A stretch of DNA of 64,000 nucleotides from an uncultured bacterium (GCA_963727525.1 CAVSGO010000007.1:352001-416000), one strand, 5' to 3'. Shown: positions 279 through 55,759, counted from the stretch's first letter. Program-made: numbers and translations. Notes: generated from the sequence alone by a model not told the origin.

Positions 279-480
279 GATCTCACCCTCCGTCTTTATC
301 ACCGCCGCGTGACGAATCTAGCACGATCACCCGGAAACGACCACGGATTCCCCCGGGCAACGGGAGGCCCGGGATCGAGGAGATATTGACTCCCACTACC
401 GGGGCCCTTAGGATCCGGGCCGGCGGGAGCCACGGTCAGCGGCTCAGCGAAACCCGGCGGGAACGAGGACGCGGTTGACG

Positions 481-2601
481 ATGGCACGTGCGCGCACAGG
501 GATGGCGAGCGTCGGTGTCGGATTGGCCCTGAGCGCGCTCGTGGCCTGCCGTACCGACACGCCGACGCCGCCGCAAGAAGACGGGGCCACCACCGGCGTA
601 CTGGACGTGCTCGTTCAGAACGGCGGCGGCCAGGCGATGGCGGGGGCCTCGATCGAGACCCGCCCCGCATCCCGGACCGCCGCGACCGACAGCCTCGGGC
701 GGGCCATTCTCGCCGACGTTCCGGTCGGTCTCTACAGTGTCTGGGCCGTGGTGTCCTCGGTCGGATCCGGTGTGGCTGTGGCCGAGGTGCGGGGCGATGC
801 CGTCACCTCCGTCACCGTCACCGTGCAGCCCGGCCAGTTTCCCCAGCCGGCCGCCTTCATCGCCGCCCCGCAGGACAGCACCGCGGTCTCGTACATCGAC
901 ACACTGACGTTCGTCGGGATCGTCACCGATCTTGCGGATCCGCCCTCCGCAATGCGCGTGCAATGGTGGAGCAACCGGGACGGCCTGCTCGCGGATCTGG
1001 CCGGCACCGCTGATGACGGCACCACCGGATTGACCACGGATCAGCTCAGCCGCGGCTGGCACTGGATCAAGCTCCAGGCAACGAATACGAGTGGGTTCAC
1101 CGGGGCCGACAGCATCCGCGTGGCCATCGTGGCGCGGCCTCCCGTGGCGACCTGTGACACGACGACCGTCGGTTACGCGCCTGGAGAGCTCGCGACCGTG
1201 ACGGCGCATGTGTCGGACCACGAAACCCCCGCGCCGGATCTGATGGCAACGTGGTCGAGCGACCGTGACGGCGATCTGGGCACCACCACTGTGGCGGCCG
1301 ACGGTACAACCCGGCTCGAGACGCGCGACCTGAGCTTCGGCGTGCATGCCATCACCGTCACCGTCACCGACCGGGACACGCTGCAGGCCAGGGCGACGGT
1401 GGCTCTGGTCAACGCACTGCCGCCGCCGCCGCAGGGATTCGTGGCCAGCGCTGCACGCGGCACCGTGTCGCTGTCCTGGCAAGCCACCGCGGCGCCGCGG
1501 TTCGTGCGCTACGAGATCTACCGCCGCGTGGGCGATGGTGTGCCGGCCGAGCTGATCGCGACCATCACCGACGCCGATGCGATGTCGTACACGGATACGC
1601 AGGCGCCGCTCGTCGTCGCAGCCGACTACGATCTGCGCGTCATCAACGATCTGGGCTACGTGCGGGCGAGCGCGTGGGTGACGGTGGCCGATCCCGGCGG
1701 TCTGCCGCTGGTCGATCTCCCGGACGATGCCGCGATGGATCCCGGCGGCACCTGGCTCTACCTGCGCACCGGCTCGCGTCTGAGCCAGATCGACCTCGCG
1801 ACGCTGACGCTGGTGGCCGAGACGACCGTGGGCGCCGTGGACGGCTGGCTCACGGTGGCCGATACGGGGGAGGGCGTGGAGGTCGTAGTACCGGGATCCG
1901 ACGGCGAGGTCCGCTTCTACGACGCGAAGATCCTCGCGTCCCATGGGAGCCTCGCCACCGGGCGTCCAGTGCGTAGCGTCGCCGTCGACACCGGAGGCTT
2001 GCTCTACACGTCGGTGCATCCGGCCACGGCCGACGACCTGCCCCTGCGGGTGTATCAGCGCGCCACGGGTTCGCTGATCGACGGCGGCGGCCACCGTGCG
2101 TCGGCGCGCATCTTACGTCTGCATGGCCGCCATGAGGCCGTGGAGATCAGCGTGGGTCAGACACCGGCCGATCTCGACTACTACCGCTTCGATGGGGAGG
2201 GGCACCTGGTCGATCACACCACCAGTCCCGAGACGATGCTCGATGCCGCCGTGATGCGCGTGGCGGAGAACGGCGGCTACCTGATCACCGGCGCGCGCGG
2301 CGCGATTTTCGTCGGGGACAGGAGCCTGGCCTACCGCGGCGACCTCACCGCGACCGAAGGCGCCTACCGGGACTTCGCCACCGTGGCCGACGGGTCCGTG
2401 ATCTACGCCGCCGCCGCGGAGGCCCCGCGGATCGACATCTACCGCTATCCCAACTCCGCGGTGACCGGCACCCGGACCACGCGTTGCCTCCCGGCGGTCA
2501 TCCTGCGCCACGGCGATGAGTTGGTGGTCGTGGGGACGCTCGCGCAGCCCTCGGGCGCGGCGACCGCCGGGGTCGAGGTCGTCCCCCTTTCCGGCGACTG
2601 A
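481..2601 (+). CDS. Putative lipoprotein: carboxypeptidase-regulatory-like beta-sandwich, two Ig-like repeats, FN3-like domain, C-terminal beta-propeller-like region
   Basis: Lipobox LSALVA-C; 'ATDSLGRAILADVPVGLY'; internal repeat W.S.RDG.L...DGTT.L.T..LS.G.H.I; 'VSLSW...YEIYR' FN3 pattern. Start could be 475, 481 or 502. Confidence 0.65.
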   Translation: MARARTGMASVGVGLALSALVACRTDTPTPPQEDGATTGVLDVLVQNGGGQAMAGASIETRPASRTAATDSLGRAILADVPVGLYSVWAVVSSVGSGVAVAEVRGDAVTSVTVTVQPGQFPQPAAFIAAPQDSTAVSYIDTLTFVGIVTDLADPPSAMRVQWWSNRDGLLADLAGTADDGTTGLTTDQLSRGWHWIKLQATNTSGFTGADSIRVAIVARPPVATCDTTTVGYAPGELATVTAHVSDHETPAPDLMATWSSDRDGDLGTTTVAADGTTRLETRDLSFGVHAITVTVTDRDTLQARATVALVNALPPPPQGFVASAARGTVSLSWQATAAPRFVRYEIYRRVGDGVPAELIATITDADAMSYTDTQAPLVVAADYDLRVINDLGYVRASAWVTVADPGGLPLVDLPDDAAMDPGGTWLYLRTGSRLSQIDLATLTLVAETTVGAVDGWLTVADTGEGVEVVVPGSDGEVRFYDAKILASHGSLATGRPVRSVAVDTGGLLYTSVHPATADDLPLRVYQRATGSLIDGGGHRASARILRLHGRHEAVEISVGQTPADLDYYRFDGEGHLVDHTTSPETMLDAAVMRVAENGGYLITGARGAIFVGDRSLAYRGDLTATEGAYRDFATVADGSVIYAAAAEAPRIDIYRYPNSAVTGTRTTRCLPAVILRHGDELVVVGTLAQPSGAATAGVEVVPLSGD

Positions 2602-2820
2602 TTCTCGATTTCGCATTCCCTCGCCTCGATTCCCCATTCTGATCCCTTTCGAGAAACGACGCCGACTGGCACGCGCCTTGAGGAAGGTGTGCAGGATCTG
2701 GGGACCGGCACACGGCAAACCCACATTCTCAACGGTTCTCGACGGTCGGCGTTCGCGAAATGCGGCGCGACCGCGACGACGAATCGCAAAACGCAAGCGT
2801 ACAGGGGATCGAGAGCACCC

Positions 2821-5800
2821 ATGAAGACACCCGAGCGCATCCTCCAGGGATTGATCTTGCTGGCCGTCGCGGTGGGCCTGCCTGCCGCCGCCCTGGCCTT
2901 CGATCACCTCGAGATCACGGTGGTCAATCCTCACATCGTGGCCGGAAGACCGGCGGTGACCGTGCAGACGCCCTTCAGCGTCCAGGTGCGCGCCGTCAAT
3001 GGTGACGGTTCCACGGACACCAATGCCGACTTCATCAACGCCCAGCTGCAGTCGCCTGACGTGGCCGCCAATCTTCCGGCGTCCGCGTATCTGCAGAACG
3101 GTGAGCGGCAGTTCGACGGGGTCACCTTCCTAGCGCCGGGACAGCCGGTGCGCCTGCGTGTGTTCGACGCCGACGACGCCTCGGTGCCGACGGCCGAGGT
3201 GCAGATCAACTGCTACAACTTCGTGCACCACTTCCAGATTGCGGTGCCAACGGGCAACAAGTACGTCGACCAGGCCGTGAACGTCACCATCACCGCCCTC
3301 GATCAGGCGGGCGGCACGGTGCTGAACTACCGCGACGACGTCGTACTGACCGCACTCGTCGGCCATTTCAGCACCGGACCCAGTATCACGGTGTCGGGCC
3401 TGTCGTTCGCCAACGGCCAGGTCACGGTGCCGGTGACATTCTGGGGCACCGATCCAGTGACGCGCGAGAATACGCTCACGGCCACCGCCACTGTGATGTA
3501 TCCCGGCCAGACGACGCCGGCCGTGGGCAGCGCCGTGGTGTCGCCCCTGCTGCCTGGCCCGCTATCCGACATCATGCTGCTACTGCCGGGCGAGACGCTG
3601 ACACCCGGCGTGAGTCCCGGCAAGTCGGGCACGCCGAACTCCCAGACCTCGGGTGCGAGCTTTGGCGGTATCCGGGTCTACGCCACGGACCAGCGCTGGA
3701 ATCCCGTGATGAGCGGCCCGTATCCGAGCATCGGCTGGAGCAGTGACGATCCGGACGCCGGGGTCGTGCTCCCGCCTGCGGCCGTGATGGTCGGCAACCC
3801 GGAGACGAGCTACACCGCCACCCTGATCCGCTCCGGCACAACCCGCGTGACCGCCGACGCGTCGGGGGCGGTCAGCGCCAACAGCCGCAGCGATGTGGTG
3901 ATCAATCCCGAGGGCCTCGATCACTTCGAGTTCGATACTGGCATCTGGAATCCGACGGATGTGCAGATCACCACGATCCCGTTCAATATCCGCGTCATCG
4001 CGCGCGACTCCAACGGCAACGTCTTTCCCCTGAACGGCCAGGTGAGCCTGCGCGTCCGTATCGGCACGAGCGACGAGAGCGCCGACTACATCATCACGAA
4101 CAACTCCACGTTCCACAACGGCCAGCTCGACGCGCTGATCCAGGTGACCAAGCGCGGATTCTCGGCGCGCATCATCGTGGACAGCGGCGTGGTGGGCGAG
4201 TCGCCGACGTTCCAGGTGAACAACGGCCCCTGCGAGAAGATCCTGATGACCTTCCCGGGCGAGACCTGGGTGAACGGACTCAACGATCCCACCTTCGGGG
4301 GCAATCAGGGCGTGCCCAATGCGGTGGTCGCGGGTTCCATCATCACGCCGGTGACGATCCGTCCGGTCGACCGTTTCAACAACCTCGCGCCGGGTAACCG
4401 CAACGTGACATTCACCTGCCCGACCGGCTGGTTCCAGCTCCCCGACTATCCCGGCAACATCGTCGCCATTTCCAACCCGACCGATATCCGCGTGGTCTTC
4501 CGCACCGCGGTGGGCGCGCAGGTGCTGCGTGCGCAGTCGAGCGGCATCACGGCGAACAACTCGAGCCAGGTGACGGTGGCCCCGGCGGCGTGGAACCGCA
4601 TCGTGGTGCAGGCCCCGGGCGAGACACTGTCGCCGGGCATCTTCGACAGCGTCGAGGACGACGGCAAGCTCGGCGATCCGTCGTCCCAGGACGCCGGCGT
4701 GCCCTTCAACGTGCGCGTGTACGCCACGGACGACTACTGGAACCCCGTGAGCGACAGCTCGCCGGCGCTGCCCATGAGCGTCGACTTCACGAGCAGCGAC
4801 GCGCTGGCGATACTGCCGAGCAACCCGCAGACGCTCAACGACAACGTGGGCGATTTCCAGGTGGCCCTCGTCACCCTGGCCGACCCGAACCGGCAGACCA
4901 TCGAGGTGACCGACCGCCTCACCGGCCACGGTGCGTACACCACGATTCCCGTGCGCGCGGGCGTGATCGATCACTTCGACATCGGCGTCAACAATCATTC
5001 CAATCCCACGCCGGGCGATGTTCTCGATCCGATTCCCGACCATCGCGCCGGAAGCTGGTTGCCCAACGTCACGATCATCGCGCGCGACGTGTTCGGGAAC
5101 CACATCTCCGACTACACCGACGATGTGACGCTGTGGGTGAGCCACGGCACCGGCATACTCACGCCGACCAGTGTCGACATGGGTGCCGGTCTCGGAAGCG
5201 GCACCTACCAGGGCGCCTGGCGCGGACCGATCCAGATCACGCGATCAGGCGTGGACGTGCGGTTATTCGTGCGGGAGGAGACGTACGCTCACACCGACAG
5301 TTCGAACACGTTCACGGTCTTCGCCCAGGCCCAGGACTACGCGAAGATGCTGGTGCTGCTTCCCGGTGAGACGCCGACGCCCGGCATCTTGCCCGGCAAG
5401 GTGGGTACGCCGCTGCCTGTGCAGGCCGGCGACCCCGTGCACGCCACGGTCATGGCTACCGATGCCTGGTTCAACCTGGTGCCGGCGCGGCCGCAAGCGC
5501 ACTTCGCCGACAGCGGCTTCTTCCAGATGGTCACGCCGAACGATCAGGTGCTCGACCCTGATGGCACCGGCGAGATGGACCTCTACTTCAAGAGTGCCGC
5601 GTCGCACGACCTGCGGGTGAACGACCTCGTGACCCCGGCGATCGCCGACACGTCGACGATCTCGGTCACGGCGGGCGCCTTCGACCGCTTGATGGTCCTG
5701 CTGCCTGGCGAGACTCCGCAGCCGGGCGGACCCGAGTCCGACGGCAAGATCGGTACGCCGGCGCCGCAGACGGCCAGCCTCGAGTTCGATGTGCACATCC

Positions 5801-8800
5801 TGGGGACCGACCAGTTCTGGAACCTGGTGACCAATGCCGCCGAGCACGTGCACCTGGCCAGCGACGACGGCTCGCTCACGCCGACCAACCCGCTGAACAA
5901 CGATCAGCCCCTCGTCAGCGGCGAGATCGTCATGCCTATCTACCTCACGTCGCCGGGCTTCGTGACCCTGGCGGGATCGGCCCTCGACCATACCGATATC
6001 ACCGGACAGCAGGTGACGCTGCAGGTGGAGCAGGGGGCGATGTACCAGATCGACACGCCGGCGACGGCCTATGTCGGTCCGCCGAGCAACTTCTCTGTCA
6101 CGATCTCGCTGGTGGACGAGTTTGGCGTGCCCATGCCCGCCGCGAACAATTGGGTCACCATCGAGGCCTTGCGCAGCAACCTCGAGCCGGCTAGCAGCAC
6201 CCTGCAGGTCACCAGCGCGCAGCTCGTGAACGGCACGGTGACGATCGCCGATGAAGCTTACAACACGGTCGAGGACATCGTTGTGCGTATCACCGACATC
6301 TCGGGGCGCACCAGCTACAGCTCGACGATCCAGATGCTGGCCAACGGCCTGGAGTACGTCGTCTCCGCCGGCGGCACGACGCCGCGGGTAGGACCGCCGG
6401 CCACGTTCCCGGTGGCCGTCGTCTTGCGCGACGTGGACACTCATACCGTGATCGACGACGACCGCCGCATCTACGTGGGCGTGAACTCGTCGCTGGGCGG
6501 CCCCGGTCAGGGCGTCGTGGGTGTGGTGAGCCAGCGGCTCGACCATGGCGTGGTGGCGTTCCAGCAGAGCTACACTCGGGCCGAGAACATCTACGTGACG
6601 ATCCAGGACACGACGGGTCTGGATGGGTCGAGTCCCGTGTTCGCCGTCCGTCCCGACGGCTACAAACGTCTCCAGCTCGTGGCGCCCGGCGAGGTGGTGC
6701 AGGCTGGCGTACCGGCCTTCGAGGAGACAGGCAAGTCGGGCATGCCTACCACGCAACGCTCGGGCGAGCCCTTCCCGATGACCGCACGCGCCGTCGATCA
6801 GTACTGGAACCTTGCCGACACCACGAGCGTGGGCATCCTGCGCCTCGTGGCGAGCGACGGATCGTTCAGCGAGGACGGCAACCCCGAAGAAAACTACGTG
6901 CCGTTCATCAATGGCCGGCGCACCTTCAATGGCTATCTCACCGACGAGGGTACGGTGGATGTGACGGTGTACGACGAGCAGGATCTCAACAAACCGTCGC
7001 AGACCACCCACGTGCCGGTGGATCCGCCTTACGAGTACGAGATCACCGTCCCGGCGCAGGCGAGCACGGGACCGGTGCCAGGCTTCCAGGTGACGGTGAA
7101 GCTCGTGGATCCGGTCACCGGCAACGTCGTGCCCACGGCGATGAACCGCTTCCGGCTCATGCCGCTGCTGCCCAATCATGGCGCGGCCAACGGAGTGCTT
7201 GGCACCGTGGAGGGCCAGCTCGTCGGTGGCGTGTGCGTGATCAACCAGCAGAGCTACAGCACGGTCGAGGACATCATCATCCGCGTGGATGACGATTACG
7301 GCCGCGAAGCGTTCAGCTCCGTCATCGAGATGGACAGTGGCGGCCTCTACTACGCGGTGTCGATACCCGATAGTGCCCTGGTCGGACCGCCGGAGACGTT
7401 CAACCTGCGGGTCGAGCTGATCGACAGCAATACCGGCCAGCGCGTCACGACGCAGGATCGTCTGTTCACCATCCAGGTCATGAGCGCCCAGACCGGGCTG
7501 CCGGGCGCGGGCCACCTCGAGGTGTCGCAGGGCATCCTGCAGGCGGGGCTGCGCAACGTGGCCGAGGCCTATAGCCGTTCCGAGGATATCTTCGTCGCCG
7601 TGAGCGACACCTTCGGCGTGACCGGGCTCTCCAACACCTGCCGCATGCTCGCCGACGGGTTCAAACGCATCCAGATCGTGGCGCCGGGCGAGACGCCGGC
7701 GCCCGGCGCGCAGACCGGCACGGGCAAGACCGGCACGCCGCTGACGCAGCAGGCGGAGGTGCCGTTCACCGTGGTCGTGCGCGCTGTCGACCAGTACTGG
7801 AACCTCGTGCGCACGATCGACGACGGCGCCATCCACCTGGCCAGCAGCGGGGGCAACCTTGACATCGTCGATGCCGACGACGTGGACGCGCCGTTCATCG
7901 GCGGCAGCCGCGACATCGGCATCGTGCTCGGCGACCCGGGCCTGGTCTCGGTCTTCGCCACCGACGCGGTGCACGCCGAGGTCAGCTCGGGCCGTGTGGA
8001 CGTACCGGTGAACGAGGCCGAGTACCGCGTGATCCTGCCCTCGCCGGCGGTGGTCACGGCCGGCCCGCCCGCCACGTTCACGCTCACCGTGCGGCTGGTG
8101 AACCCGCTCACGGAGGAGCGGATCAACGCCGGCGGTCAGTTCGAGATGTCAGCGTTGCGGCCCGATCGCTCCGCCGCCACGTCCCAGCTCGGCATCACCG
8201 CCGGCACGCTCGTGGGCGGGGAGGCCGTGATCAGCGGCGAATCATATGCCGCGAGCGAGCCGATCGTGGTGCGGGTCCGCGACACCCGCGGGCGCACCTC
8301 GTACAGCGACGTGCTCACCGTCGTACCGGAAGGCGTTCGTTACGCGGTGGACATGCCCGACAGCGTGATCGCGGGCGAGAGCTTCGAGATGTCGGTGCAG
8401 CGCATCGACATCGTCACTGGACAGCTCGTGACCAGCGACGATCGTACCTTCGTGCTCACGGCCTTCAGCGGTAACTCGCCGCGTCCGAACCCTGCGCTGC
8501 AGCCGGCGGGCATCCTCGCCGACACGGTGGGGACCACCTTGAATGGCGTGAAGGTGTTCGCGCACCAGTCCTACGATCGGGCAGAACCGATCTTCTTCAA
8601 GGTGTCGGATGATACCGGCGAGCAGTATTTCACGGGTGTGATGAACGTGCTGCCGGCGCCGGTCTCGGTGTGTGAACTCAGCGCCGAGGACGTGCCGGGC
8701 CACGAGCTCGATCGCCCGCTGCGGCCCGCGGACCTCGTGTACTTGCAGGTGCGCACCACGGACCGTTGCGGCAACGCCGTGGCCAACCTGCCCATCACCT

Positions 8801-9585: not shown

Positions 9586-9608
9586 TGCAGCGTACGACCG
9601 GAGGCACG

Positions 9609-10919
9609 ATGAACGCAACGAGGAGCATCCACGGACGGCGCCTCGCCCCGACCCTCGCGGTGATTGGCCTGGCGACCACCCTGCTGGCGCTGCCGTGCCT
9701 GGCGGCGGATACCGGCGGCACTCCCGGCGGCTACCTGCGCTATGGCGCGAGCGCACGCAGTCTCGCGCTCGGCAACGCCGTGGGTGGTCTGGCCGACGAT
9801 GCCGCCACCAGCTACTGGAATCCGGCGGGTCTGGCCTGGCTGCGCACGATGGAGCTGTCGGCCATGGGCGCGACGCTGATCTCGGACACGAAGTACGGCT
9901 TCGTGACCCTGGGCCTGCCCACCGAGCACTGGGGCACATTCGCCCTCAGCGGCACCTATACCAGGAGCGCCGATTTCGAGCGCACGACTCTCTTCGAGGA
10001 TCTCGACGAGACCTTCAGCGAGGGCGAAGGCATCTTCTCTCTGGCCTACGCCCGCGGTGGGCGGCGCTGGTCGTTCGGCGCGGCGGTGAAGACCGTCAGC
10101 CAGAGCATTGCCGGGTCCCAGGCCAACGGCACCGGCCTCGACCTCGGCGTGTCCCTGCGACCGCACCGCTCGTTGAGCCTGGGCATGAGCGTGCAGAACG
10201 CCATCGCGCCGAAGATCACGCTCGTCGAGGACGAGGAGGAGCTGCCCTGGAGCGTGCGCGGCGGCTTCGCCCTTCATTTTTTCCGCAACAAGTTGCAGGT
10301 GTCGGCCGACGGTGTGAAGACGCGCTGGATGGACACCAGCTACCGGGCCGGCCTCGAGGTATGGCCCACGCGGCCAGTGGCCATGCGTGCCGGCTACGAC
10401 GGCGAAAAGGACCAGTGGTCCGTGGGCGCCGGCATGCGCTGGGAGAACCTGCAGTTCGATTACGCCTACGTGAACACCGACCTGGGCGGCCAGAATGTCG
10501 TGAGCGCGACGCTGCGCTTCGGCGTGCCGTACGGCGTGAAGGTGGACCGCAACAAGGCCCTCTTCAGTCCGTCCGGCGCCGATCGCGAAGTGACCTTCGG
10601 CATCCGCACCGCCGTGCGCGGCGTGGTGGAGTCGTGGCGCGTGGAGATTCGTGACGACCACGGCAAGTCGGTGAAGGTGCTCCAGGGCGCGGGCGATCCG
10701 CCGTCCGAGGTAGCCTGGAACGGCGAGGACGGCGACGGCCGCCTGGTGGGCGACGGCGTCTACACGGCGCACGTCACGATCATCGACGATCTGGGTCAGG
10801 ACTGGGACTACGAGAGTGACGTCGAGGTGCTGGGCTTCCAGGAACGGACCCGGGCGCCCATCCGAGTGGAGATCGGCAGCGGTGCGGCAGGCGCCGCGGC
10901 AGGGAGTGACCAGCGATGA
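9609..10919 (+). CDS. PorV/PorQ (FadL-like) outer-membrane beta-barrel fused to a C-terminal FlgD-like Ig domain
   Basis: Signal peptide; ARSLALG...DDAATSYWNPAGLA PorV/FadL-type N-terminal motif; alternating beta strands ending QFDYAY...SATLRF; then W.VEIRDD.G..V....WNGEDGDG..V.DGVY. Confidence 0.8.
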   Translation: MNATRSIHGRRLAPTLAVIGLATTLLALPCLAADTGGTPGGYLRYGASARSLALGNAVGGLADDAATSYWNPAGLAWLRTMELSAMGATLISDTKYGFVTLGLPTEHWGTFALSGTYTRSADFERTTLFEDLDETFSEGEGIFSLAYARGGRRWSFGAAVKTVSQSIAGSQANGTGLDLGVSLRPHRSLSLGMSVQNAIAPKITLVEDEEELPWSVRGGFALHFFRNKLQVSADGVKTRWMDTSYRAGLEVWPTRPVAMRAGYDGEKDQWSVGAGMRWENLQFDYAYVNTDLGGQNVVSATLRFGVPYGVKVDRNKALFSPSGADREVTFGIRTAVRGVVESWRVEIRDDHGKSVKVLQGAGDPPSEVAWNGEDGDGRLVGDGVYTAHVTIIDDLGQDWDYESDVEVLGFQERTRAPIRVEIGSGAAGAAAGSDQR

Positions 10920-13900
10920 AGCGCAACACCATGATGGGTCTGATCGCGGCGGTGTGTCTGGCGACGGCAGGAGCCGCCACCGTCCGCGCAGGCCAGGAAC
11001 TGGCCGTGCCCACCGAGGCCGCCCTCTGGGAGGCCGCAGGCCAGGCGTACGCGGTCGGCGTCGACAAGTCGGCGGCGATGCAGCAGTACCGCCTCTTCGT
11101 CCAGACCTACGGCAAGAGTGACAAGGCGGCCCGGGCGCAGTACATGGTGGGCGAGTGCTACTTCGCCGCCAAGGACTGGGCCGGCGCCGTGCGCGAGTAC
11201 GGGCGCGTGAAGGACTACCGCGGCCGCGATGACTACCTCGAGGCCTCGGTGCTCCTGCGGCAGGGCGAGTGCCAGTTCAATCTCGGGCAGTTCGCCGACG
11301 CCATCGCGCTGTACAACCGCCTCCTCGACAAGTACGACGACACTTTCCTGCTAGCCGAGGGGCTCTACGAGATCGGCCAGGCATACATCGTCGACGGCAA
11401 CTGGCTCAAGCTGCGCGCGGCCTACCGCGAGCTGCTGGAGCGGCGGCCCGGCTACGCTGATCTGCCGCAAGTGAAGTTCGCCCTCGGCCTGTTCGCCTAC
11501 CAGGAGCAGGACTATGAGACCGCGCGCACCTACTTCGAGCAGGTGCCGAGCGACCGCGGCCTCTACTATCTGGGCCGCACGCTCGAGGACACGGGCCAGT
11601 ACATCCTGGCCATCCAGCGCTACAAGCAGGTCTTGCGGCGCCATGCCGACAGCCCGCTCGCCGACGACGTGGCCTTCAGTATCGCCGAGGCCTTCTATCG
11701 CTCCGGCCAGAACGACGTGGCCGTGCGCAGCTACCACGACTTCATCGAGAAGTATCCGGACAGCCCGTTCGTGCCCAATGCGCGCTACAAGATGGCGTGC
11801 GTCACTTTTCGCGAGAATCGGTACGACGAGTCGATCCGACAGCTCGAGGAGATCGTCAAGTCGTTCCCAGACAAGCAGGTGAGCGCCTACGCGCAGTACC
11901 TGATCGGCGATTGCTACATGCAGCTCCAGCGCACGAGCGAAGCGATCTTCGCCTACACCGATGTCGTGCGCCGATTCCCGGAGAGCACCGTGGCCAGCGC
12001 CGCGCTGCACAAGGTCATCTACGCCTACGCCAAGGAAGACAACTACGCGCAGGCCATCGTCCTGGCCGACGAGTTCCTGCAGCGTTATCCCGGCGATCCC
12101 CTGGCTCCGCGCGTGCGGGTGCTCAAGGGCTTCGGGCACTTCCAGCAGGAGGAGTACCCCCAGGCGATCATGGCCTTCCAGAACGTCGTGGACAAGCACG
12201 TGAACACCGACGTGGCCGAGCGCGCCCTCTTCCTTTCGACGCTGGCGTACTTCCGCATCGGACAGCTCGATCGCGTGATCACGAACTACAACTACATCGC
12301 CAGCAAGCTGCTACCGACGCCGAGCTACTGGCGCGGCCGCACCTACTATTACCTCGGAGAGGCCTATTTCGCCCAGGGGCTGTACCGCGAGGCCACGAGC
12401 ATGTACCGACTCGTGCTCACGGGCTACCCGCGCAGCAATGTTGCGGCGCCGGCGCTCCAGGGTCTGGTGGCATCGCTGAGCCGCACCGGCCAGTACGACC
12501 TCGCTCTGGAAGAGCAGGAGAAGTTCCTGCTGGCGCTCGCCAACTCCGACAGCGAGGACGGCACGAACAGCCTGGCCGTGGGTTCGATCTACTTCAACCA
12601 GCACAAGTACGAGGAGGCTCTCCACGAGTTCGAGGACTTCCTGAGCAAGAATCCCGACGGTCCGGCGGCCGCGTCGGCGCTCGCCAACCAGGGGGATTGC
12701 TATTACCGCCTGCAGTACTACGAGCAGGCCCTCGAGTCCTGGCAGACCCTGCTCACGCGCTTCCCCGACGCGCCGGAGGCCGGCGAGGCGCTCTACCGCA
12801 TCGCGGATACGCAATTCGGCCTCGGCAGGTTCGACGCCGCGGCGCGCAGCTACAGCCGCGTGCAGGCGCAGTTCGCCCAGGGCGCCCACGCCGCCGACGC
12901 CTCCTTCGGTCTGGCCAACTGCGCCTACAACCAGGGCAAGAACGATGATGCGATCGCGGCCTTCTCGCGTTTCGTCGACACCTATCCCAAGGATCCTCGT
13001 GTGGAGGACGCCGAGCTGGGCATCCAGAGCTGCTACTACCGCAGCGGCAAGGACATGGAAGCCTATCTCCAGGGTCATCCCGACAGTCCGCTGGCGGCCG
13101 ACGTCTACTGGAGCAAGGGTCAGGACGCATTCGCGGCCGGCGACTTCGCCACTGCGGCGCGCAACTTCGAGCGTGTGACCCTGGACTACCCGGATAGCGA
13201 GTCGGGACCTGGCGCTCTCTTCTATCTCGCCGAGAGCTACTACCGCGCGGAGTCGTTCGAGCAGGCGCTGGCCGGGTTCAACAACTTCACGACCACGCAC
13301 CCCACCCACGAGCTGAGCGAGCTGGCGCACCTGCGGTCGGCCACGATCCTCTTCAAGCTCGAGCGGTTCTCGGAGGCGGCCGCTGCCTACGAAACGCTGA
13401 CCGACCTCTTCCCGAGCGGCGAGTACACGGCGCTGGCCGCCTACAACGCCGCGATCTGCTACCAGCAGCTCGAGGACTGGCATGCCGCGATCGGCAGCCT
13501 CGTACGCTTCGCCGCCGACTTCCCCGACAGCGAGAACGCGAAGGGCGTGTGGCTGCAGATCGCCGGCATCTATCAGGAAGAGCTGGGGGACTACCCGCGC
13601 GCCGTGGAGGCGTACGACAAGGCCGCCGAGCGCGGCGAGACCTCGCCGGTCGAGGCGCGTTATCGCCAGGGCGAGTCGCTCGAGAAGTCGGGCGACGTCG
13701 ATGGGGCTCTGGAGCATTTCCAGCAAGCGGCTGCGGCCACCGGCGGCGCCGACCAGTTCCGTATCGCCAGCCTCGCGCAGATCGGGCAGATCAGCGAGGA
13801 CCGCGGCGACTGGGCCACCGCGATCGCCGCGTACGAGAAGATCGTCGCGGCGGGCGGCAAGGAGGAGTGGACGGCGATGGCGCAGGGGCGCATCGCCGCC

Positions 13901-13933
13901 ATCAAGGAGATGCAGGTGTCGAGCGGTAGCTAG
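10916..13933 (+). CDS. Large periplasmic tetratricopeptide-repeat protein (CpoB/BamD-like TPR units)
   Basis: Signal peptide; more than 20 A.Y..G..Y......A...Y......YP.S repeats; start overlaps the upstream stop (ATGA). Confidence 0.9.
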   Translation: MKRNTMMGLIAAVCLATAGAATVRAGQELAVPTEAALWEAAGQAYAVGVDKSAAMQQYRLFVQTYGKSDKAARAQYMVGECYFAAKDWAGAVREYGRVKDYRGRDDYLEASVLLRQGECQFNLGQFADAIALYNRLLDKYDDTFLLAEGLYEIGQAYIVDGNWLKLRAAYRELLERRPGYADLPQVKFALGLFAYQEQDYETARTYFEQVPSDRGLYYLGRTLEDTGQYILAIQRYKQVLRRHADSPLADDVAFSIAEAFYRSGQNDVAVRSYHDFIEKYPDSPFVPNARYKMACVTFRENRYDESIRQLEEIVKSFPDKQVSAYAQYLIGDCYMQLQRTSEAIFAYTDVVRRFPESTVASAALHKVIYAYAKEDNYAQAIVLADEFLQRYPGDPLAPRVRVLKGFGHFQQEEYPQAIMAFQNVVDKHVNTDVAERALFLSTLAYFRIGQLDRVITNYNYIASKLLPTPSYWRGRTYYYLGEAYFAQGLYREATSMYRLVLTGYPRSNVAAPALQGLVASLSRTGQYDLALEEQEKFLLALANSDSEDGTNSLAVGSIYFNQHKYEEALHEFEDFLSKNPDGPAAASALANQGDCYYRLQYYEQALESWQTLLTRFPDAPEAGEALYRIADTQFGLGRFDAAARSYSRVQAQFAQGAHAADASFGLANCAYNQGKNDDAIAAFSRFVDTYPKDPRVEDAELGIQSCYYRSGKDMEAYLQGHPDSPLAADVYWSKGQDAFAAGDFATAARNFERVTLDYPDSESGPGALFYLAESYYRAESFEQALAGFNNFTTTHPTHELSELAHLRSATILFKLERFSEAAAAYETLTDLFPSGEYTALAAYNAAICYQQLEDWHAAIGSLVRFAADFPDSENAKGVWLQIAGIYQEELGDYPRAVEAYDKAAERGETSPVEARYRQGESLEKSGDVDGALEHFQQAAAATGGADQFRIASLAQIGQISEDRGDWATAIAAYEKIVAAGGKEEWTAMAQGRIAAIKEMQVSSGS

Positions 13934-13958
13934 GTCGCCGGCATCCGTTGGCGGTGCA

Positions 13959-13996
13959 CGATCCCCGGGGACCCGGTTCCCGGGGATCGCGTTTTT
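13959..13996 (+). terminator. Intrinsic terminator after the TPR gene
   Basis: CGATCCCCGGG / CCCGGGGATCG stem followed by CGTTTTT. Confidence 0.65.
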
Positions 13997-14243
13997 GGGC
14001 CACCACGACCGGGCGCCACGAGGAAAGGTCAGGAAGTTTCGACCCCTGCGTGGACGTGGCACGCTGGTTGCCGAGGGACGGGGTAGCAGAAGGAATATCG
14101 GCCGCAATCGGGTCATAACGGCGGTGCGCCGCCACGGGATCTGGCAAAGAGCAAGGCCCGGCCCCGGACCCGGATCGCGGGATTGCAGAACGCAACCGTC
14201 GGCGCGAGGACGCCGACGCCCCAACAGGAAAGGTCAGGCTGCC

Positions 14244-14954
14244 ATGTTCGGCGACATGTCCATCATCCAGGTCTTCCAGTCCTCCATGACCATGGTGGTG
14301 CTGCTGCTCTGCTCGATCGTGACGTTCGCGTACGTCGTGGAGCGCAGTCTCTACTTCCAGACGTCGTCGTGCAACGTGCGACGGTTCATGCAGGAGCTGT
14401 CCGGCCACATGAAGGCCGGCAACCCGCGCGCGGCTCTCGAGTACTGCCAGAAGACCAACAAGCCCATCGGGCGGGTCATGGCCCAGGCCCTGGCGACCAT
14501 GACGCGCAGCCGCGAGGAGCAGACCCAGCGGCTGGAGACGGCCATCGAGCTGGAGCAGGTGGAAATGGAGCGGCACCTGGGCGTGCTCGGCACCATGGCC
14601 AACATCGCCCCGCTGCTCGGCCTCTTCGGTACGGTGGTCGGCATCATCCGCGCCTTCGCCGACATCGCGCGCACCGGTTCCGGTGGCGGCGCCGTGGTGG
14701 CGATGGGCGTGTCCGAGGCTCTGCTTACGACCGCTGCGGGCATCATCATCGCCGTGCTGGCCACGGTGACGTTCAACTTCTTCGTGCGTCGCGTGCGCAC
14801 GCGCGTGGCGCAGCTCGAGGATGCCCGGGAGACCTGGTTCACCCTGTGGCACCAGTACCAACGCCAGACACGTAGCGGGGCGGCGCCGACGCGCGCCACC
14901 GCCGCCCAGACCAAGACGACGTCCCGTCCCGAGCCCGCTGGCATCCTGAGCTAA
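14244..14954 (+). CDS. exbB: MotA/TolQ/ExbB proton-channel family protein
   Basis: LGTMANIAPLLGLFGTVVGII.AF and GVSEALLTTAAG motifs; ATG at 14244 chosen over the long ORF-track extension. Confidence 0.9.
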   Translation: MFGDMSIIQVFQSSMTMVVLLLCSIVTFAYVVERSLYFQTSSCNVRRFMQELSGHMKAGNPRAALEYCQKTNKPIGRVMAQALATMTRSREEQTQRLETAIELEQVEMERHLGVLGTMANIAPLLGLFGTVVGIIRAFADIARTGSGGGAVVAMGVSEALLTTAAGIIIAVLATVTFNFFVRRVRTRVAQLEDARETWFTLWHQYQRQTRSGAAPTRATAAQTKTTSRPEPAGILS

Positions 14955-14968
14955 GACGAGGAGCCGAT

Positions 14969-15394
14969 ATGGCCCGCAAGAACAGCAGCCTGAACGACTC
15001 GCTCACAGACGCCAACATCACACCGCTGGCGGACGTGACGACAACCCTGATCGTGGTCTTCCTGATCACGATGCCCGCTCTCATGTGGAACGGCTTCGAC
15101 GTCAACCAGGCCGAGGCCGGGGGCAAGGACCCCGTGGTCCAGCCGACCGAAGAAGTCGATGAGGATCTGCTGACGATCGCCGTCACGCCGGCGGGGTACT
15201 TGCTCAACGGCAAGGCCACGGACGAGGCCGATCTCGGCGCGGAACTGCGCTCGCGCCTCCAGACGCGCGACGATCGCACCGTGGTGATCGTGCCGGACGA
15301 CGTCGTGCCCCTGGGCCGCGTCGTCACCGCCCTGGATATCGCCAAGGCCAGCGGGGCCTCGAGTCTGGCCCTGCTCAACCGGATCGGGGGCTAG
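14969..15394 (+). CDS. exbD: ExbD/TolR family protein with canonical Asp22
   Basis: ANITPLADV...LIVVFLI TM helix; C-terminal V.I.PD..VP.G.VV..LD..K..G. Confidence 0.88.
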   Translation: MARKNSSLNDSLTDANITPLADVTTTLIVVFLITMPALMWNGFDVNQAEAGGKDPVVQPTEEVDEDLLTIAVTPAGYLLNGKATDEADLGAELRSRLQTRDDRTVVIVPDDVVPLGRVVTALDIAKASGASSLALLNRIGG

Positions 15395-15396
15395 AC

Positions 15397-15813
15397 GTGG
15401 CACGCCGCAATGGTCTGAAAATCGAGACCCGGGTGACGGTGGTGCCCGTCATCAACGTCTCCCTGGTCGTGGTCCTCACGCTCATGGTGATCGCGCCGTT
15501 CCTCAGCGGTGAGGATCAGGAGATCGATCTGCCCCAGGCTATGGCTAGCCAGGCCGATGACACCGACAACATCGAGATCATGTTCACGCACGATCGGCGC
15601 GTGTTGATCGACGAGGCGGAGATCGCGATCGGCGACCTGCCCGACCTGCTGGCGAACACGTTCGCCATGATGCCGCACAGCGTGGCGGTGGTGAAGGCGG
15701 ACCAGAGCCTGCCCTATGGCGAGGTGGAGACGCTGATTGCCGCGATCGAGGAGGCCGGGGCGCCGCGCATCGCCCTCGCCACGAAACCCAAGCAGGAGGA
15801 GGCCGGTCGATGA
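15397..15813 (+). CDS. exbD: Second ExbD/TolR family protein; TM Asp replaced by Asn
   Basis: VVPVINVSLVVVLTLMV TM helix, IDLPQA, KADQSLPYGEV...GA..IAL. Confidence 0.85.
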   Translation: MARRNGLKIETRVTVVPVINVSLVVVLTLMVIAPFLSGEDQEIDLPQAMASQADDTDNIEIMFTHDRRVLIDEAEIAIGDLPDLLANTFAMMPHSVAVVKADQSLPYGEVETLIAAIEEAGAPRIALATKPKQEEAGR

Positions 15814-17123
15814 TGCAGTACGCCATCGACCGCCGGCGCCAGACCCGCGGCGGCTTCGCGGCGAGCTTGGGAGCGCACGTCCTGGCGATCCTGCTGCTCG
15901 GACTGATGATCGGGCACCAGGCCGTCCAGCGCCTGGAGGACGAACTCACCGAGATCTCCTATATCGAGGCGCGCTACGGCGAGGACGTGGCGGCCAAGGT
16001 GAAGCTGAAGGACCCCATGCTGAACAAGCCGGCGCCGCCGGGACCGGTCGGGCCTGGCATCACCACCGATTCGGCCGTGAAGCCCAAGGAAGCGCCACCG
16101 GGACCGCCGGCACCAGTGCTCGCGCCCGAGCTGCCGCCGGCGACGCCCCGGCCGCAACCGCAACTCGCACAGGCCGCGGCGCCGCAGATCGCGCCGGTCA
16201 CGAAGCCGGTGCGCACGCTCGAACAGGCGCCGGTGCTCGATGCGCGTGACGCGCCCGCACCCGCGCGGCGTGTGATCGATACCGACAAGCTGAAAGACAG
16301 CCTGGCCGGCAAGCTCGTCGAGGCTCAGCCGAGGACGCTGCGCCCGACTCCGGTCGCCGACCGCGAGGCTTTCAAGCCCGTCAACGGCAATCTCCGCGAC
16401 CGCGGCGGCCGCGGACCCTCGGGAGCCGACCCGGTTGTCTCGGCGGCACCCCGGCAGGATCCCGGCACCGTGGTCGAGGCTCCGGCATCCCTCGGCGGGG
16501 CCAGCCTCAGCAGCCGAGCCTCGGCCGGCAGCTATGTGGCCCCGGCATCGTCCCTCGCCCCGGCCGGGGTGACGCAGGGCTCGATGGCCGGCGGCGCCGT
16601 GCTCGACATCGCCGGGCCGGCATCAGGCGGCGGCGGCGGCGCTCGCAAGGGCCGCAAGACGATCCTCAATTACGGGTCCGGCGGTGGCGGCGGCGGCGGG
16701 CTCGTGGGCCGCAGCGGTCGTCTCGCCGAACCCCCGGCCAGCCGGGCCATCGTCAACGACCCCGCGCCGGCGACCAGCGACGACAAGGCCCAGGTGGCCG
16801 AGGCCAAGGTGTCCGCGGAGAAGGGCGTCGGCATGACCATCACTGGCCAGATCGCCGGCCGCAAGATCCTGCACCGGGTAGCCCCGGGGTACTCGGATGC
16901 GGCGCGTCGCAATGGCTGGGAAGGCGTGGTGGCCGTGCGTTTCACCGTGCTGCCCGACGGCCGCGTGAAGGACAACATGTTCTTCGAGCAGACCTCTGTG
17001 CACCGCGATCTCAACCAGGCCGCCATGGCGGCCATCAAGCAGTTCCGGTTCGCATCACTGCCCTCGGACCAGTCGGCCGTCGAGCAGTGGGGCGTGATCA
17101 CCATCGTCTTCCGATTGAACTAG
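15810..17123 (+). CDS. tonB: TonB family energy transducer
   Basis: N-terminal TM helix with S-x3-H (ASLGAH), long Pro/Ala/Gly-rich linker, TonB_C P.Y...ARR.G.EG.V.V.F.V..DG.V ending VFRLN. Confidence 0.88.
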   Translation: MMQYAIDRRRQTRGGFAASLGAHVLAILLLGLMIGHQAVQRLEDELTEISYIEARYGEDVAAKVKLKDPMLNKPAPPGPVGPGITTDSAVKPKEAPPGPPAPVLAPELPPATPRPQPQLAQAAAPQIAPVTKPVRTLEQAPVLDARDAPAPARRVIDTDKLKDSLAGKLVEAQPRTLRPTPVADREAFKPVNGNLRDRGGRGPSGADPVVSAAPRQDPGTVVEAPASLGGASLSSRASAGSYVAPASSLAPAGVTQGSMAGGAVLDIAGPASGGGGGARKGRKTILNYGSGGGGGGGLVGRSGRLAEPPASRAIVNDPAPATSDDKAQVAEAKVSAEKGVGMTITGQIAGRKILHRVAPGYSDAARRNGWEGVVAVRFTVLPDGRVKDNMFFEQTSVHRDLNQAAMAAIKQFRFASLPSDQSAVEQWGVITIVFRLN

Positions 17124-17143
17124 AGCTTCAGGAGCAGACGACC

Positions 17144-18091
17144 ATGAGCAAGCGCATCACGATTTCCGGTCTCGCGACCGCATTGATCCTGCTGGCGGGC
17201 GGGGCCGTGGCCCAGACGGCGACCAACGACTCCACGGGTGCACAGTGGACGCAGGCCGGCGAATCGGGCGCGGCCCTGCCGGAGATGGTGGTCGAGGCGC
17301 AGAACAAGGTGCGGCAGCAGATCGAGAAGACGAACTTCGCCATGGAGCTGAGCGCGGCCGTGGTCGATACATTCTACACGCCCATGGACGATCAGGCTCT
17401 CGGCGTGAGTCCGGTGAGCGGGTTGCAGCCGTACCTCAACAACCTCGAGCCGCTGTCCAGCGACCAGCCGCCGCACTGCTGGCTGCCGGAGATGACGAGA
17501 ACCCCGGTGGCGACCTTCTATCCCGGTGAACCCGAGGGCCACAAGATCAAGCAGTGGAACCTCACGGTCACCGATTTTCGCGGTAGCCCCTGCCGCACGT
17601 ACCAGGGCGGCGGCAACCCGCCGAAAGCCGTGTCCTGGGATGGGCACACCAACGCGGGCGAGATCCTGCGTGTCGGCTACCCGTACAGCTACGTCTTCCA
17701 GCTCACCGACAAGGGCACCAACACGTACAACTACGCCGGCGCCAGTTTCCGCATCCCGGCGCTCGACTACCGTAGGGACGGCGACCGCATGCTCGAGATC
17801 GCGGGCGGGGAGATCTTCGCGCGAGAACAAAGCGAGCTGACGGATTCTGGCAAGGCGTGGCTCACCCGGGCCGCCGACGAGATCCGGCGCCATCCCTACT
17901 CGCCGGTGCGCGTCACGGTGACCGCCGAGACCAAGGACCTCGCCGCCCGGCGCGCGGATGCCGCCGCGGGCTTCCTCGCCACGACGATGATCCTGCCCCG
18001 GGAGCAGGTGGAGACGGAGGCGGTGCAGAAGGCGGATCTGCGGGCGGAGATGGACGGCACGGTCGCCATCGCCATCCAGCACGCGGATTGA
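17144..18091 (+). CDS. Periplasmic protein: TonB-box-like N-terminus, FlgD-like Ig domain, degenerate OmpA_C-like domain
   Basis: AGGAG RBS; signal peptide ending AVA; LPEMVVEA; W.LTVTDFRG...GNPPKAVSWDG; IF....SEL.....L...A..I..HP...LAARRA..A..FL. Confidence 0.6.
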   Translation: MSKRITISGLATALILLAGGAVAQTATNDSTGAQWTQAGESGAALPEMVVEAQNKVRQQIEKTNFAMELSAAVVDTFYTPMDDQALGVSPVSGLQPYLNNLEPLSSDQPPHCWLPEMTRTPVATFYPGEPEGHKIKQWNLTVTDFRGSPCRTYQGGGNPPKAVSWDGHTNAGEILRVGYPYSYVFQLTDKGTNTYNYAGASFRIPALDYRRDGDRMLEIAGGEIFAREQSELTDSGKAWLTRAADEIRRHPYSPVRVTVTAETKDLAARRADAAAGFLATTMILPREQVETEAVQKADLRAEMDGTVAIAIQHAD

Positions 18092-21499: not shown

Positions 21500-21566
21500 T
21501 TGCATGATCTCGCGCGCATTGGCACGTGAGCCACCACGCGGGTTGCGTCCGAAAGGGGAATCGCTC

Positions 21567-40602: not shown

Positions 40603-40668
40603 TGCCCGCGCTCGCGATGTGGTAGACTCTCGGGTGTCGGTACGGTCCCCGGCATGGGAGAGTCGATC

Positions 40669-43600: not shown

Positions 43601-43683
43601 GCGGACTGGCCAGCGGCGCCTATTTCGCGCGCGCCGAGATGGGCGAGACGGTATGGACGCGCAAGCTGCTCCTCGTCCGTTGA
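40669..43683 (+). CDS. Secreted CapA/PGA_cap-family metallophosphoesterase with PKD domain and FlgD-Ig CTD
   Basis: VGDIM, ANLE, GNNHIIDYG, HSGDEY, HHPHVLQG, SLGNFVFD; WDFGD (PKD); PNPFNP...WDGRDESGR.LASG.Y. Confidence 0.9.
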   Translation: MRVCLWFCAVLACGAATNALAVGRGVVIADFESGSVALQSYPGQDADPEGWALVDENTHDGSAWSLRLTGNTWKIMPVAPVALTDTTVWQVAVFCEDLGEMHAFGVGDGQHELFYTAWGEDLPPDTNWWTVYQGAFPRRAWHVFLLPLGEDWQTTFGYAPTLDRLFFVNDDDADDAATTLFDTVVDVTGDLPHSPRCRILYTIDSQRKVAADLYQVGVQFHAEVFDPDSDTVTLAWDFGDSTGSDETDPVHEFLVHASYPYTVSLAATDPDGLAAGDTCQVEVDPGAPDRPLTVNFVGDIMTGRSYEAPGGIIDADGVESIFAPTLPILGDAADVSVANLEVSYTDRGTPHPTKSVVFRSRPENLDGIRFAGIDLVTIGNNHIIDYGEIGMLDTMAGLDERGIRYSGAGVNEYFALLPCYWTERGVRLAFLGQSNRTGRQWNYQPFLDAGYDKPGFAYELPANLEKAIDHVRDLADVVIVQTHSGDEYQITPPDDRAGPPPRVEDPVLLPGAPDIRFRNEPTPGERELRRLAVDLGADVLINHHPHVLQGFESYHGKLIMHSLGNFVFDLYYPETMPTLVLTLEITKDGIVGQRFAPAWIDRYIPRPATGQLAREIIDRMADYSRPMNALVVPDYAHSTARVLLARDEVDSLVVSRAYELALVAQDGWATSAPVRAAGDGYLSGITSVTGDGAGWEVRWGREILWHGGFEAEGASLWDINTSDEWLDTTVAHDGTTSLALRRDHDGGGQTGTDLIRHLPCDPAREHSAGGWLRTENAGQARTMVRFYDSRGSESPLSSTDLADPVDGTTGWTYQWRDLATPSGAIYFELRAGLEPPSAGSALAWYDDLALVEWEPWQPAGAALAIAAPNNQRYLQVRCGTPEATSAVLVTSETVYDAVLTPAPDAAPVPARPRLTNQPNPFNPRTTIVLDLPAGASVVPVTLAVFDLRGHRVATLYRGDLAAGRTHGFTWDGRDESGRGLASGAYFARAEMGETVWTRKLLLVR

Positions 43684-55729: not shown

Positions 55730-55759
55730 AAGATTGATGCGCGCAGAGGGGGATTCAGC

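Follow-up and report, generated by a model that had tools for sequence, protein, structure and literature searches.

How energy from the inner membrane reaches the carriers and gliding adhesins of the type IX secretion system, or T9SS, is, as a matter of mechanism, still open. GldLM provides the answer known so far and is to our knowledge confined to Bacteroidota. In Myxococcus, the Agl-Glt system combines one TolQ-like and two TolR-like stator proteins with TonB-like and tetratricopeptide repeat (TPR) partners, outer-membrane barrels and a surface adhesin. Here we examine a locus of eight genes in a 64,000-nucleotide stretch of DNA from an uncultured bacterium (GCA_963727525.1, CAVSGO010000007.1:352001-416000, here C7:352001-416000; the window), in which gene order ties the better-understood ExbB/ExbD/TonB motor to a carrier of PorV type, to that carrier's cargo and to a new putative adaptor, the protein P9. 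The first-pass annotation of the window had proposed a nine-gene envelope machine coupling T9SS-like parts to a Ton-type motor without a receptor. We find one conserved unit that joins these parts, from which a lipoprotein gene has to be left out. Our preferred interpretation, which we put at a probability of roughly 0.45, is a dedicated eight-gene module, energised by the proton-motive force (PMF), that displays or moves one surface protein.

In the T9SS of Bacteroidota, type-A cargo with a C-terminal domain (CTD) binds PorV inside SprA. Excerpts of one paper describe release of the carrier and its substrate from SprA as the proposed energy-requiring step (PMC10994853). Cargo genes are often linked genetically to their own shuttle genes, according to part of another paper (PMC12618676). 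The portion of PMC6434023 cited here reports that PopC secretion in Myxococcus needs a Ton-dependent outer-membrane protein, and the Caldithrix abyssi genome paper, in the section cited, records that Bacteroidetes-type gliding machinery was not found. In the literature searched, which does not reach into supplementary gene tables, we found no published description of the present cluster, nor a report of T9SS in Eisenbacteria or of type IX secretion in Krumholzibacteriota. Papers pairing PorV, ExbD, TonB and tetratricopeptide concern, by their titles and abstract openings, oral or gut Bacteroidota and Brachyspira rather than this cluster. All the domain families have been described before; within that literature, neither their combination nor the family of P9 has.

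Gene content of the locus

The source organism is represented by a Krumholzibacteriota metagenome-assembled genome (MAG; label G000) of 4.66 Mb that is 96.7% complete and has 67% G+C. Close public relatives are labelled Candidatus Krumholzibacteriota. All nine open reading frames (ORFs) named earlier are present, closely packed and in one direction on the + strand, as are all locus features given below. Eight of them form the unit, in the order CTD-bearing protein with immunoglobulin-like (Ig) repeats, PorV-like barrel, TPR protein, ExbB, ExbD, ExbD', TonB and P9. Neighbouring genes overlap by four bases at 9582, 10916 and 15810, and the other gaps are 2-20 bases, save for 310 bases before exbB. 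The start of the last gene, 17144, was confirmed, and that of exbB was corrected: it is read in the frame of the ORF at 13482 with its start at 14244. The ORF at 14183 was rejected as exbB, being in the wrong frame and without a family match.

Families were assigned with Pfam and NCBIfam-type profile searches at the models' cut-offs. None of the nine products matched Plug or TonB_dep_Rec, in agreement with the earlier view that the locus lacks a TonB-dependent receptor. The whole genome has 10 Plug matches, none of them inside the window.

Conservation of the gene order

PorV-like proteins were matched in 151 of 151 sampled genomes of the phylum, at three strengths. Strong matches are orthologues of the locus protein (type A), those at about 30% identity form type B, and the remainder are generic PorV paralogues. 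We compared 20-kb stretches around 20 PorV-like matches from at least seven families of the phylum. The order big protein-PorV-like-TPR-ExbB-ExbD(s)-TonB-P9 is kept in 20/20 of these Krumholzibacteriota loci at identities down to 25-30%, while the flanking genes vary from locus to locus. In this set tblastn missed TonB in one locus (L031). Several loci of type B gave no match for the first ExbD but have a gap that would fit it.

The unit extends to other phyla. Scanning an ExbB alignment over one genome per GTDB species gave 80 loci, whose partner genes were sought by tblastn with type-A and type-B queries. The full set is present at 17 loci, and four more end at a contig edge after big-PorV-TPR-ExbB. 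P9 was found at 36 of the 80 loci and at least one partner besides ExbD at 44; at the remaining 36, mostly from Vulcanimicrobiota/Eremiobacterota, ExbB stands alone or with ExbD. Records that carry the full set bear the labels Krumholzibacteriota, Eisenbacteria, Latescibacterota, Calditrichota and WOR-3, and Zixibacteria and FCPU426 records run big-PorV-TPR-ExbB up to the contig end. Because the same order is found in all 20 phylum loci and in other phyla, the arrangement is far beyond chance. Conservation of the order in relatives, on which the earlier proposal turned, is thus observed, and synteny bears out the linkage of T9SS-type parts (CTD cargo and PorV-fold barrel) to a private ExbB/ExbD/ExbD'/TonB set as one conserved unit.

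Many of these loci belong to MAGs that may be mislabelled, and their genes were called by a crude ORF search with a filter on G+C at third codon positions (GC3). Full sets are also seen in bins labelled Clostridia, Methylomirabilota, Binatia and Fibrobacteraceae. With Limnocylindrales added, the oddly labelled bins that carry the module are L046, L047, L051, L066, L069, L073 and L077, which may reflect mislabelling or transfer of the module. In the ExbB tree described below, L046 and L047 nest in a Krumholzibacteria clade, L066, L069 and L073 in an Eisenbacteria clade, and L077 in an Elusimicrobia clade. The Clostridia-labelled L051 is a long branch, sister to the type-A clade.

The ninth gene does not belong to the unit. 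The ORF at 475..2601 encodes a putative lipoprotein of 708 aa with a lipobox-like LVAC near its N-terminus and a weak CarboxypepD_reg match, and had been counted as a member of the machine. It was found 5' of the giant gene in 0/8 type-A relatives examined. We therefore treat it as a neighbour only, and the unit as eight genes rather than nine.

Within the eight genes, a terminator and a gap of about 310 bp had been noted between the TPR gene and exbB. The 310-base gap does hold a terminator-like hairpin (13959..13989), a 14-bp stem followed by a T run. Such a division would be expected if a cargo-PorV pair and a TPR-ExbBD-TonB-OmpA cluster had come to lie side by side by chance. We regard this as very improbable, since the order is kept across phyla and the parts are lost together; the synteny data contradict it. 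Some relatives have no more than 25-82 bases between the two genes, so the split is local to the source genome.

Distribution and co-inheritance

The P9 profile is present in 102 of 151 sampled phylum genomes and in 81 of the 117 of high quality. It is absent from one family (f7, 0/6) and varies within genera (1/6 in both g4 and g27). Outside the phylum it occurs in 18/51 genomes of an Eisenbacteria-type phylum that includes the unpublished G170 (17/50 without it) and in 6/51 Elusimicrobiota genomes. Across the 151 genomes, P9 and the PorV-like protein are both present in 98 and both missing in 49. P9 alone was found in one genome (G119) and the PorV-like protein alone in three (G103, G120 and G127), all four being fragmented assemblies. 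These counts (P9 at E<=1e-40, PorV-like at E<=1e-32, the two match lists compared by eye) are a description and not a test, and related genomes are not independent. The module is accessory, present in about two thirds of the phylum's genomes, and where P9 is gained or lost so is the PorV-like gene.

The motor gene follows the same line. In a quick maximum-likelihood tree of 100 ExbB rows, with support from the Shimodaira-Hasegawa-like approximate likelihood ratio test (SH-aLRT) rather than bootstrap, 61 module-linked rows fall within one group of 65 (SH-aLRT 94). The Vulcanimicrobiota clade and the four other G000 paralogues in the tree lie outside this group. The module label changes four times on the tree as against a mean of 31 in shuffles, and 0/500 shuffles were as low. 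The tree omits L052, L054, L058, L101 and L104 (matches of <120 residues) and three of the eight G000 paralogues, which gave no BLASTP match or one of <120 residues. Hence the module's exbBD-tonB genes do not simply accompany TonB-dependent receptors, the alternative raised at the outset: the module ExbB forms a separate clade, and one other paralogue adjoins an ordinary receptor. Of the four non-module rows in the group, L053, L092 and L103 have no TPR, TonB or P9 neighbour detectable by tblastn, and L095 is a 1.9-kb contig. A 1483-aa ORF lies upstream of exbB in L103.

T9SS components elsewhere in the genome

Outside the locus, an open frame of 2280 aa at C7:610109 matched SprA_N (70.1 bits). 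PorU (436.5 bits, equivalog cut-off 420) is followed by a canonical PorV at C7:789-794 kb, and the genome has 12 PorV_fam matches. GldL and GldM (TIGR03513, TIGR03517) had no match in G000, GldM_1st was over its cut-off in 0/41 genomes (G000 and 40 relatives), GldN was matched in 0/5 genomes, and GldK gave only generic matches of the sulfatase-modifying type (<=100 bits vs a cut-off of 350). These negatives are weak because no control genome has a T9SS, leaving the sensitivity of the searches unproven. With that limit, the check on gldL, gldM, porK, porN and sprA suggested in the first-pass annotation gives this picture: SprA, PorU and PorV found, GldL, GldM and GldN not detected.

SprA_N was found in 117/151 phylum genomes. 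Since a full-length homologue was recovered with the G000 SprA in 5/5 Pfam-negative genomes tested, SprA is probably universal in the phylum. SprA_N matches also occur in module-carrying Eisenbacteria, Latescibacterota, Calditrichota and WOR-3 genomes. In the one Elusimicrobia genome tested, an open frame of 1822 aa matched SprA_N weakly.

A genome with SprA, PorU, PorV and about 150 CTD proteins, in which GldL, GldM and GldN went unmatched, together with GldM_1st at 0/41 genomes, invites the idea that the module motor and TonB free all PorV-bound cargo from SprA wherever GldLM is lacking. The SprA_N matches in module-carrying members of four other phyla fit it as well. However, the module is missing in 49/151 genomes, a SprA_N match is present in 16 of the 20 module-less genomes listed by handle, and presence varies inside genera (1/6 in g4). 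The cluster that is near-universal in the phylum is another one (TonB-dependent receptor-983 aa-PorV-546 aa-ExbB-ExbD-ExbD-TonB), and the absence of GldLM is itself weakly shown, the Gld searches having no positive control genome. We consider this general role improbable. Because the module is accessory while SprA occurs in genomes that lack it, we rejected the module as the phylum's general T9SS motor or as its GldLM replacement.

The other cluster is at C7:666975-680913 of G000 (L033), outside the window. Its order is TonB-dependent receptor, 983-aa protein, PorV paralogue, 546-aa protein, ExbB, ExbD, ExbD, short TonB (224 aa), 487-aa protein and ABC ATPase. The receptor is SusC-like (CarboxypepD_reg, Plug and barrel), and the PorV paralogue, in an ORF of 310 aa, is the genome's best PorV_fam match (205.6 bits in a six-frame search). 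The 546-aa gene is present in 143/151 phylum genomes. In eight loci of this type, six of them from module-less genomes, the order from PorV to the ABC ATPase is kept in 8/8; the receptor was missed in 1/8 and the 983-aa protein in 2/8. The cluster is a candidate for what generally couples PorV to a Ton motor in this phylum, where GldLM was not detected.

The surface protein and its putative carrier

The first gene of the module (2689..9585) is a 2298-aa ORF for a giant Ig-repeat surface protein. Translation probably begins at M45 (2821), with a signal peptide directly behind it, and a PGE[TV] repeat motif occurs seven times. The CTD, of T9SS type-A-like character, is encoded at 9298..9585. There FlgD_ig (33.5 bits, cut-off 27) and Por_Secre_tail (22.3 bits, just under its cut-off of 23) both match residues 2213-2295, in the last ~85 residues. 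In BLASTP against a crude ORF set the CTD matched 150 proteins of the source genome, and 134 match rows were at the extreme C-terminus. Since it is shared with the C-termini of about 150 proteins, we take this domain to be the organism's general sorting signal.

Orthologues of the giant protein (2239-2433 aa) stand at the same position in 13 type-A loci. Type-B loci have a homologue of ~1000-1050 aa with the same repeat motif in 6/7; at L029 the gene calling gave no more than a 411-aa ORF. A FlgD_ig domain sits at the C-terminus of 4/4 other big proteins scanned, two of them from other phyla, and the only type-B big protein scanned (L026) has it.

The adjoining gene (9582..10919) encodes a 445-aa outer-membrane barrel of the 14-strand type with an Ig tail. 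It matched PorV_fam at 133 bits (cut-off 90) and gave 38.6 bits against the strict PorV equivalog model, whose cut-off is 250. The barrel spans residues ~51-317 and the C-terminal Ig domain ~334-416, with a FlgD_ig match at 334-399. A model built from a 24-row alignment (predicted local distance difference test, pLDDT, 80.8) has a barrel followed by an Ig sandwich. Its best fold matches in the PDB are F. johnsoniae PorV chains from SprA complexes (8gl6_F and 6h3i_F; template modelling score 0.64-0.66, 20-22% identity), followed by FadL-family channels. Self-matches aside, the barrel's Ig tail finds its best match within the genome in the Ig domain of P9, and that domain finds its own in the tail; the two domains are paralogous.

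The FadL-family fold matches raise another possibility, namely Ton-dependent uptake through a FadL/PorV-type channel with the surface Ig-repeat protein as its capture device. ExbB/ExbD/TonB sets normally serve import, and another PorV paralogue of the genome adjoins a TonB-dependent receptor. Against this, the barrel has neither a plug domain nor a TonB box, and the conserved TonB-box-like motif sits on the soluble P9 instead. No conserved genes for a binding protein or inner-membrane transporter stand beside the module, whose flanks vary. Uptake is therefore a doubtful explanation, and the preferred one remains display or movement of the surface protein.

The likeness to the T9SS consists of a cargo with a C-terminal beta-sandwich sorting domain, a barrel of PorV fold over the PorV_fam cut-off, a cargo gene that adjoins its carrier gene, as part of PMC12618676 describes for SprB/SprF-type pairs, and a PMF motor, which in the T9SS is thought to work on the carrier-cargo complex (PMC10994853, in part). 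The module differs in having ExbB/ExbD/ExbD'/TonB in place of GldLM, while a GldK/N ring was not found in the searches above. Its carrier has an extra periplasmic Ig tail. Among named T9SS proteins there is no counterpart of P9 or of the TPR protein of 1005 aa (PorW/SprE and PorE models were under their cut-offs), and the module serves one cargo and is accessory.

The TPR protein, motor and TonB

The TPR gene (10916..13933) is at the same position in all module loci. Its product is a periplasmic protein of 1005 aa with a signal peptide and TPR throughout, including CpoB/YbgF- and BamD-like repeats. Next comes the ExbB/TolQ-type proton channel of 236 aa (14244..14954; MotA_ExbB 104.5 bits), which scored 102.8 bits for TolQ and 92.9 for ExbB in NCBIfam, both under the equivalog cut-offs.

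Two ExbD genes follow, ExbD1 (14969..15394; Pfam ExbD 59.9 bits) and ExbD2 or ExbD' (15397..15813; 64.4 bits). ExbD1 has the transmembrane Asp, whereas ExbD2 has Asn at that position. In the alignment the Asp is retained in 16/16 ExbD1 rows. It is missing from 10/15 ExbD2 rows, with Asn in 7/7 type-A sequences and other residues in Calditrichota, WOR-3 and L051. Because the Asp is kept in ExbD1 and often lost in ExbD2, the sequences suggest a heteromeric ExbD pair in which one subunit carries protons.

TonB is long, at 437 aa (15810..17123; TonB_C 51.6 bits, tonB_Cterm 54.8 bits with a cut-off of 27.1). It consists of an N-terminal anchor, a Pro/Gly-rich linker of ~300 residues and TonB_C at residues 358-436. 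In the alignment of the anchor S19 is conserved and H23 invariant; a conserved Ser and His are typical of TonB and TolA anchors.

P9

The last gene (17144..18091) encodes P9, of 315 aa. A signal peptide of the signal-peptidase-I type, without a lipobox, is followed by a disordered N-terminal region of ~90-110 residues, an Ig domain (~115-200) and an OmpA/MotB-like domain (~206-311). The OmpA match is weak by sequence (18.8 bits). In the predicted structure (pLDDT 76.7) an alpha/beta domain follows the Ig domain, and by fold it clearly belongs with the domains through which proteins of the OmpA, Pal and MotB types bind peptidoglycan (Foldseek E 3e-7, probability 1.00).

The sole conserved feature of the disordered part, in a 22-row alignment (A5) from several phyla, is a short, hydrophobic, beta-prone motif (17276..17305; type A ...PEMVVEAQ...), which resembles TonB boxes. 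A complex prediction of TonB_C (residues 335-437) with the P9 N-terminus (25-120) returned a score of 0.00 and a mark of 0.32, values that weigh neither for nor against binding. With motif, Ig domain and OmpA-like fold, the predicted anatomy suits the earlier description of this gene as "TonB-box/FlgD/OmpA-like".

A P9 profile gave 432 matches at E<=1e-30 among 1.84 billion cluster representatives, a mixture of ~300-aa proteins of P9 size and large multi-Ig proteins. Among 120 listed close homologues, those with source names are nearly all called "hypothetical protein", two are otherwise named, and one carries a precomputed OmpA Pfam match. The P9 family is without a name in databases. A P9-like paralogue of 349 aa is encoded at C3:285402-286451 of G000 (89.7 bits over the Ig and OmpA-like part) in an unrelated context, adjoined by ORFs of 799 and 2848 aa.

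Comparison with Ton, Tol-Pal and Agl-Glt

The module resembles Ton systems in its ExbB, ExbD and TonB_C domains, all over their Pfam cut-offs, in the Ser and His of the TonB anchor, and in the predicted TonB-box-like motif of the partner protein. Unlike those systems it has no plug-barrel receptor and its candidate target is a soluble Ig/OmpA-like protein. Further differences are the pair of ExbD paralogues, of which ExbD2 frequently lacks the transmembrane Asp, and the very long TonB.

The likeness to Tol-Pal lies in a stator resembling TolQ/R, an arm resembling TolA or TonB, a TPR protein resembling CpoB, and an OmpA-like partner that binds peptidoglycan and has a disordered box at its N-terminus. 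In our main rival explanation, an ancient core of TPR, ExbB, two ExbD, a TonB/TolA-like protein and P9 mobilises a peptidoglycan-binding OmpA-like protein by the PMF, in the way that TolA pulls on TolB-Pal. The TPR protein would then take the role of CpoB, the CTD protein and PorV-like barrel would be later, lineage-specific attachments, and the system would serve mainly to stabilise or remodel the outer membrane rather than to secrete. The best NCBIfam matches agree with it (TolQ, TolR and tol_pal_ybgF repeats in 11 stretches, all under equivalog cut-offs), as does the OmpA/Pal-like fold of P9 behind a disordered N-terminal motif, which we presume to be comparable to the TolA box of TolB.

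Elusimicrobia loci add to this side. Their core is TPR-ExbB-ExbD-ExbD-TonB-P9, without a PorV-like gene. Five of them (L056, L060, L062, L063 and L068) have an ORF of ~1018-1094 aa between the TPR gene and exbB. In the two scanned (L056 and L063) it encodes several Ig domains of the FlgD_ig/CHU_C/Big types and, at the C-terminus, a true OmpA domain, and this multi-Ig OmpA protein stands in place of the CTD protein and PorV-like barrel.

Several observations speak for the other side. The module has no TolB propeller, P9 is not a lipoprotein, and scores are well below the equivalog cut-offs (TolQ 102.8 vs 221, TolR 62.8 vs 127, TolA 24.2 vs 59). It includes a PorV-like barrel and a CTD adhesin, which FCB-type (Fibrobacteres-Chlorobi-Bacteroidetes) phyla always have and which are lost together with P9. 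An accessory distribution (102/151 phylum genomes, 18/51 Eisenbacteria, 6/51 Elusimicrobiota) would be odd for a housekeeping system. The genome also holds a separate tolQ-tolR pair with a TolB-like gene at C7:1053263-1056239 (TolB 267 bits, equivalog cut-off 343), and because of this cluster at C7:1053-1056 kb we rejected the module as the organism's own Tol-Pal system. Envelope tethering by a Tol-Pal-like core is in our judgement unlikely, though a serious contender.

With Agl-Glt the module shares the pattern of one TolQ-like and two TolR-like genes, and in kind it also has partners of TonB and TPR type, a barrel in the outer membrane and an adhesin at the surface. It differs in that GltE (18.9 bits vs 225) and the AgmX/PglI tail (myxo_SS_tail, 21.6 vs 40) are far from their cut-offs, the outer-membrane part is of PorV type, the adhesin is a CTD protein and there are only eight genes. 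As it lacks one defining feature of each, the module stands outside the T9SS core, Ton import, Tol-Pal and Agl-Glt, and we place it as a variant within the Ton/Tol-type energised envelope systems.

Proposed mechanism

From the parts list, the folds and their co-inheritance across phyla, all shown above, we infer how the eight-gene display module might operate. Sec would export the Ig-repeat protein to the periplasmic side, from where it would cross the outer membrane via the genome's SprA, bound to its private PorV-like carrier. Driven by the PMF, ExbB-ExbD1-ExbD2 would exert a pull by way of the long TonB, either on P9 at its N-terminal motif, on the carrier at its Ig tail, or on both. The force would extract, move or re-anchor the carrier-adhesin complex relative to the cell wall, with the TPR protein as a periplasmic scaffold and the OmpA-like domain of P9 as the hold on peptidoglycan. 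Such a private energy chain for one adhesin would be comparable to GldLM, which acts for carrier-bound cargo and gliding adhesins, and to Agl-Glt in Myxococcus.

Several points weigh against this interpretation. About a third of the phylum's genomes lack the module and keep SprA and CTD cargo, and general cargo export is therefore independent of it. The Elusimicrobia core has no CTD protein and no clear PorV; motor, TonB, P9 and TPR protein would therefore work alone, and their primary job may not be secretion. A terminator-like hairpin divides the cluster in the source genome. The TonB-box reading of P9 depends on one short motif, and in type-B P9 the OmpA-like motif appears degenerate in the alignment.

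A bolder version would make the module a self-standing energy chain for type-IX-style export and surface movement, in which a Ton/Tol-type 5:2 stator with heteromeric ExbD works through TonB and P9 to pull directly on a PorV-type carrier. The pull would free the carrier's adhesin from SprA and then propel it over the cell surface or fix it there. We hold this version to be unlikely. If true, PMF motors that span the periplasm would have come to extract carriers on two or more separate occasions, with GldLM in one case and Ton-like parts in another. The module would then offer a small and tractable model of that step, and many uncultured FCB-related phyla would have in it a candidate engine for gliding or adhesion. 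The linkage itself spans records with at least nine candidate-phylum labels, with SprA shown and GldLM not detected in the uncontrolled searches. It offers an unnamed protein family (P9), a testable hypothesis of force transmission from TonB to P9 to the carrier, and a compact eight-gene system open to reconstitution. Should the function be envelope tethering instead of secretion, the module would still be a new Ton/Tol branch with a target that is not a receptor.

Other genes in the window

Three more genes of the window encode putative CTD cargo. An S8 peptidase with CarboxypepD_reg and NIDO domains (21504-25220) and a PGA_cap/PKD protein (40654-43683) both have a C-terminal FlgD_ig-type domain. 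The third, a 1092-aa protein (55496-58774), is assigned by its BLASTP match to the CTD of the giant protein only. Downstream of the S8 peptidase is a tricorn-type protease (25386-28703) with PD40 propellers and Tricorn C1, PDZ and S41 peptidase domains.

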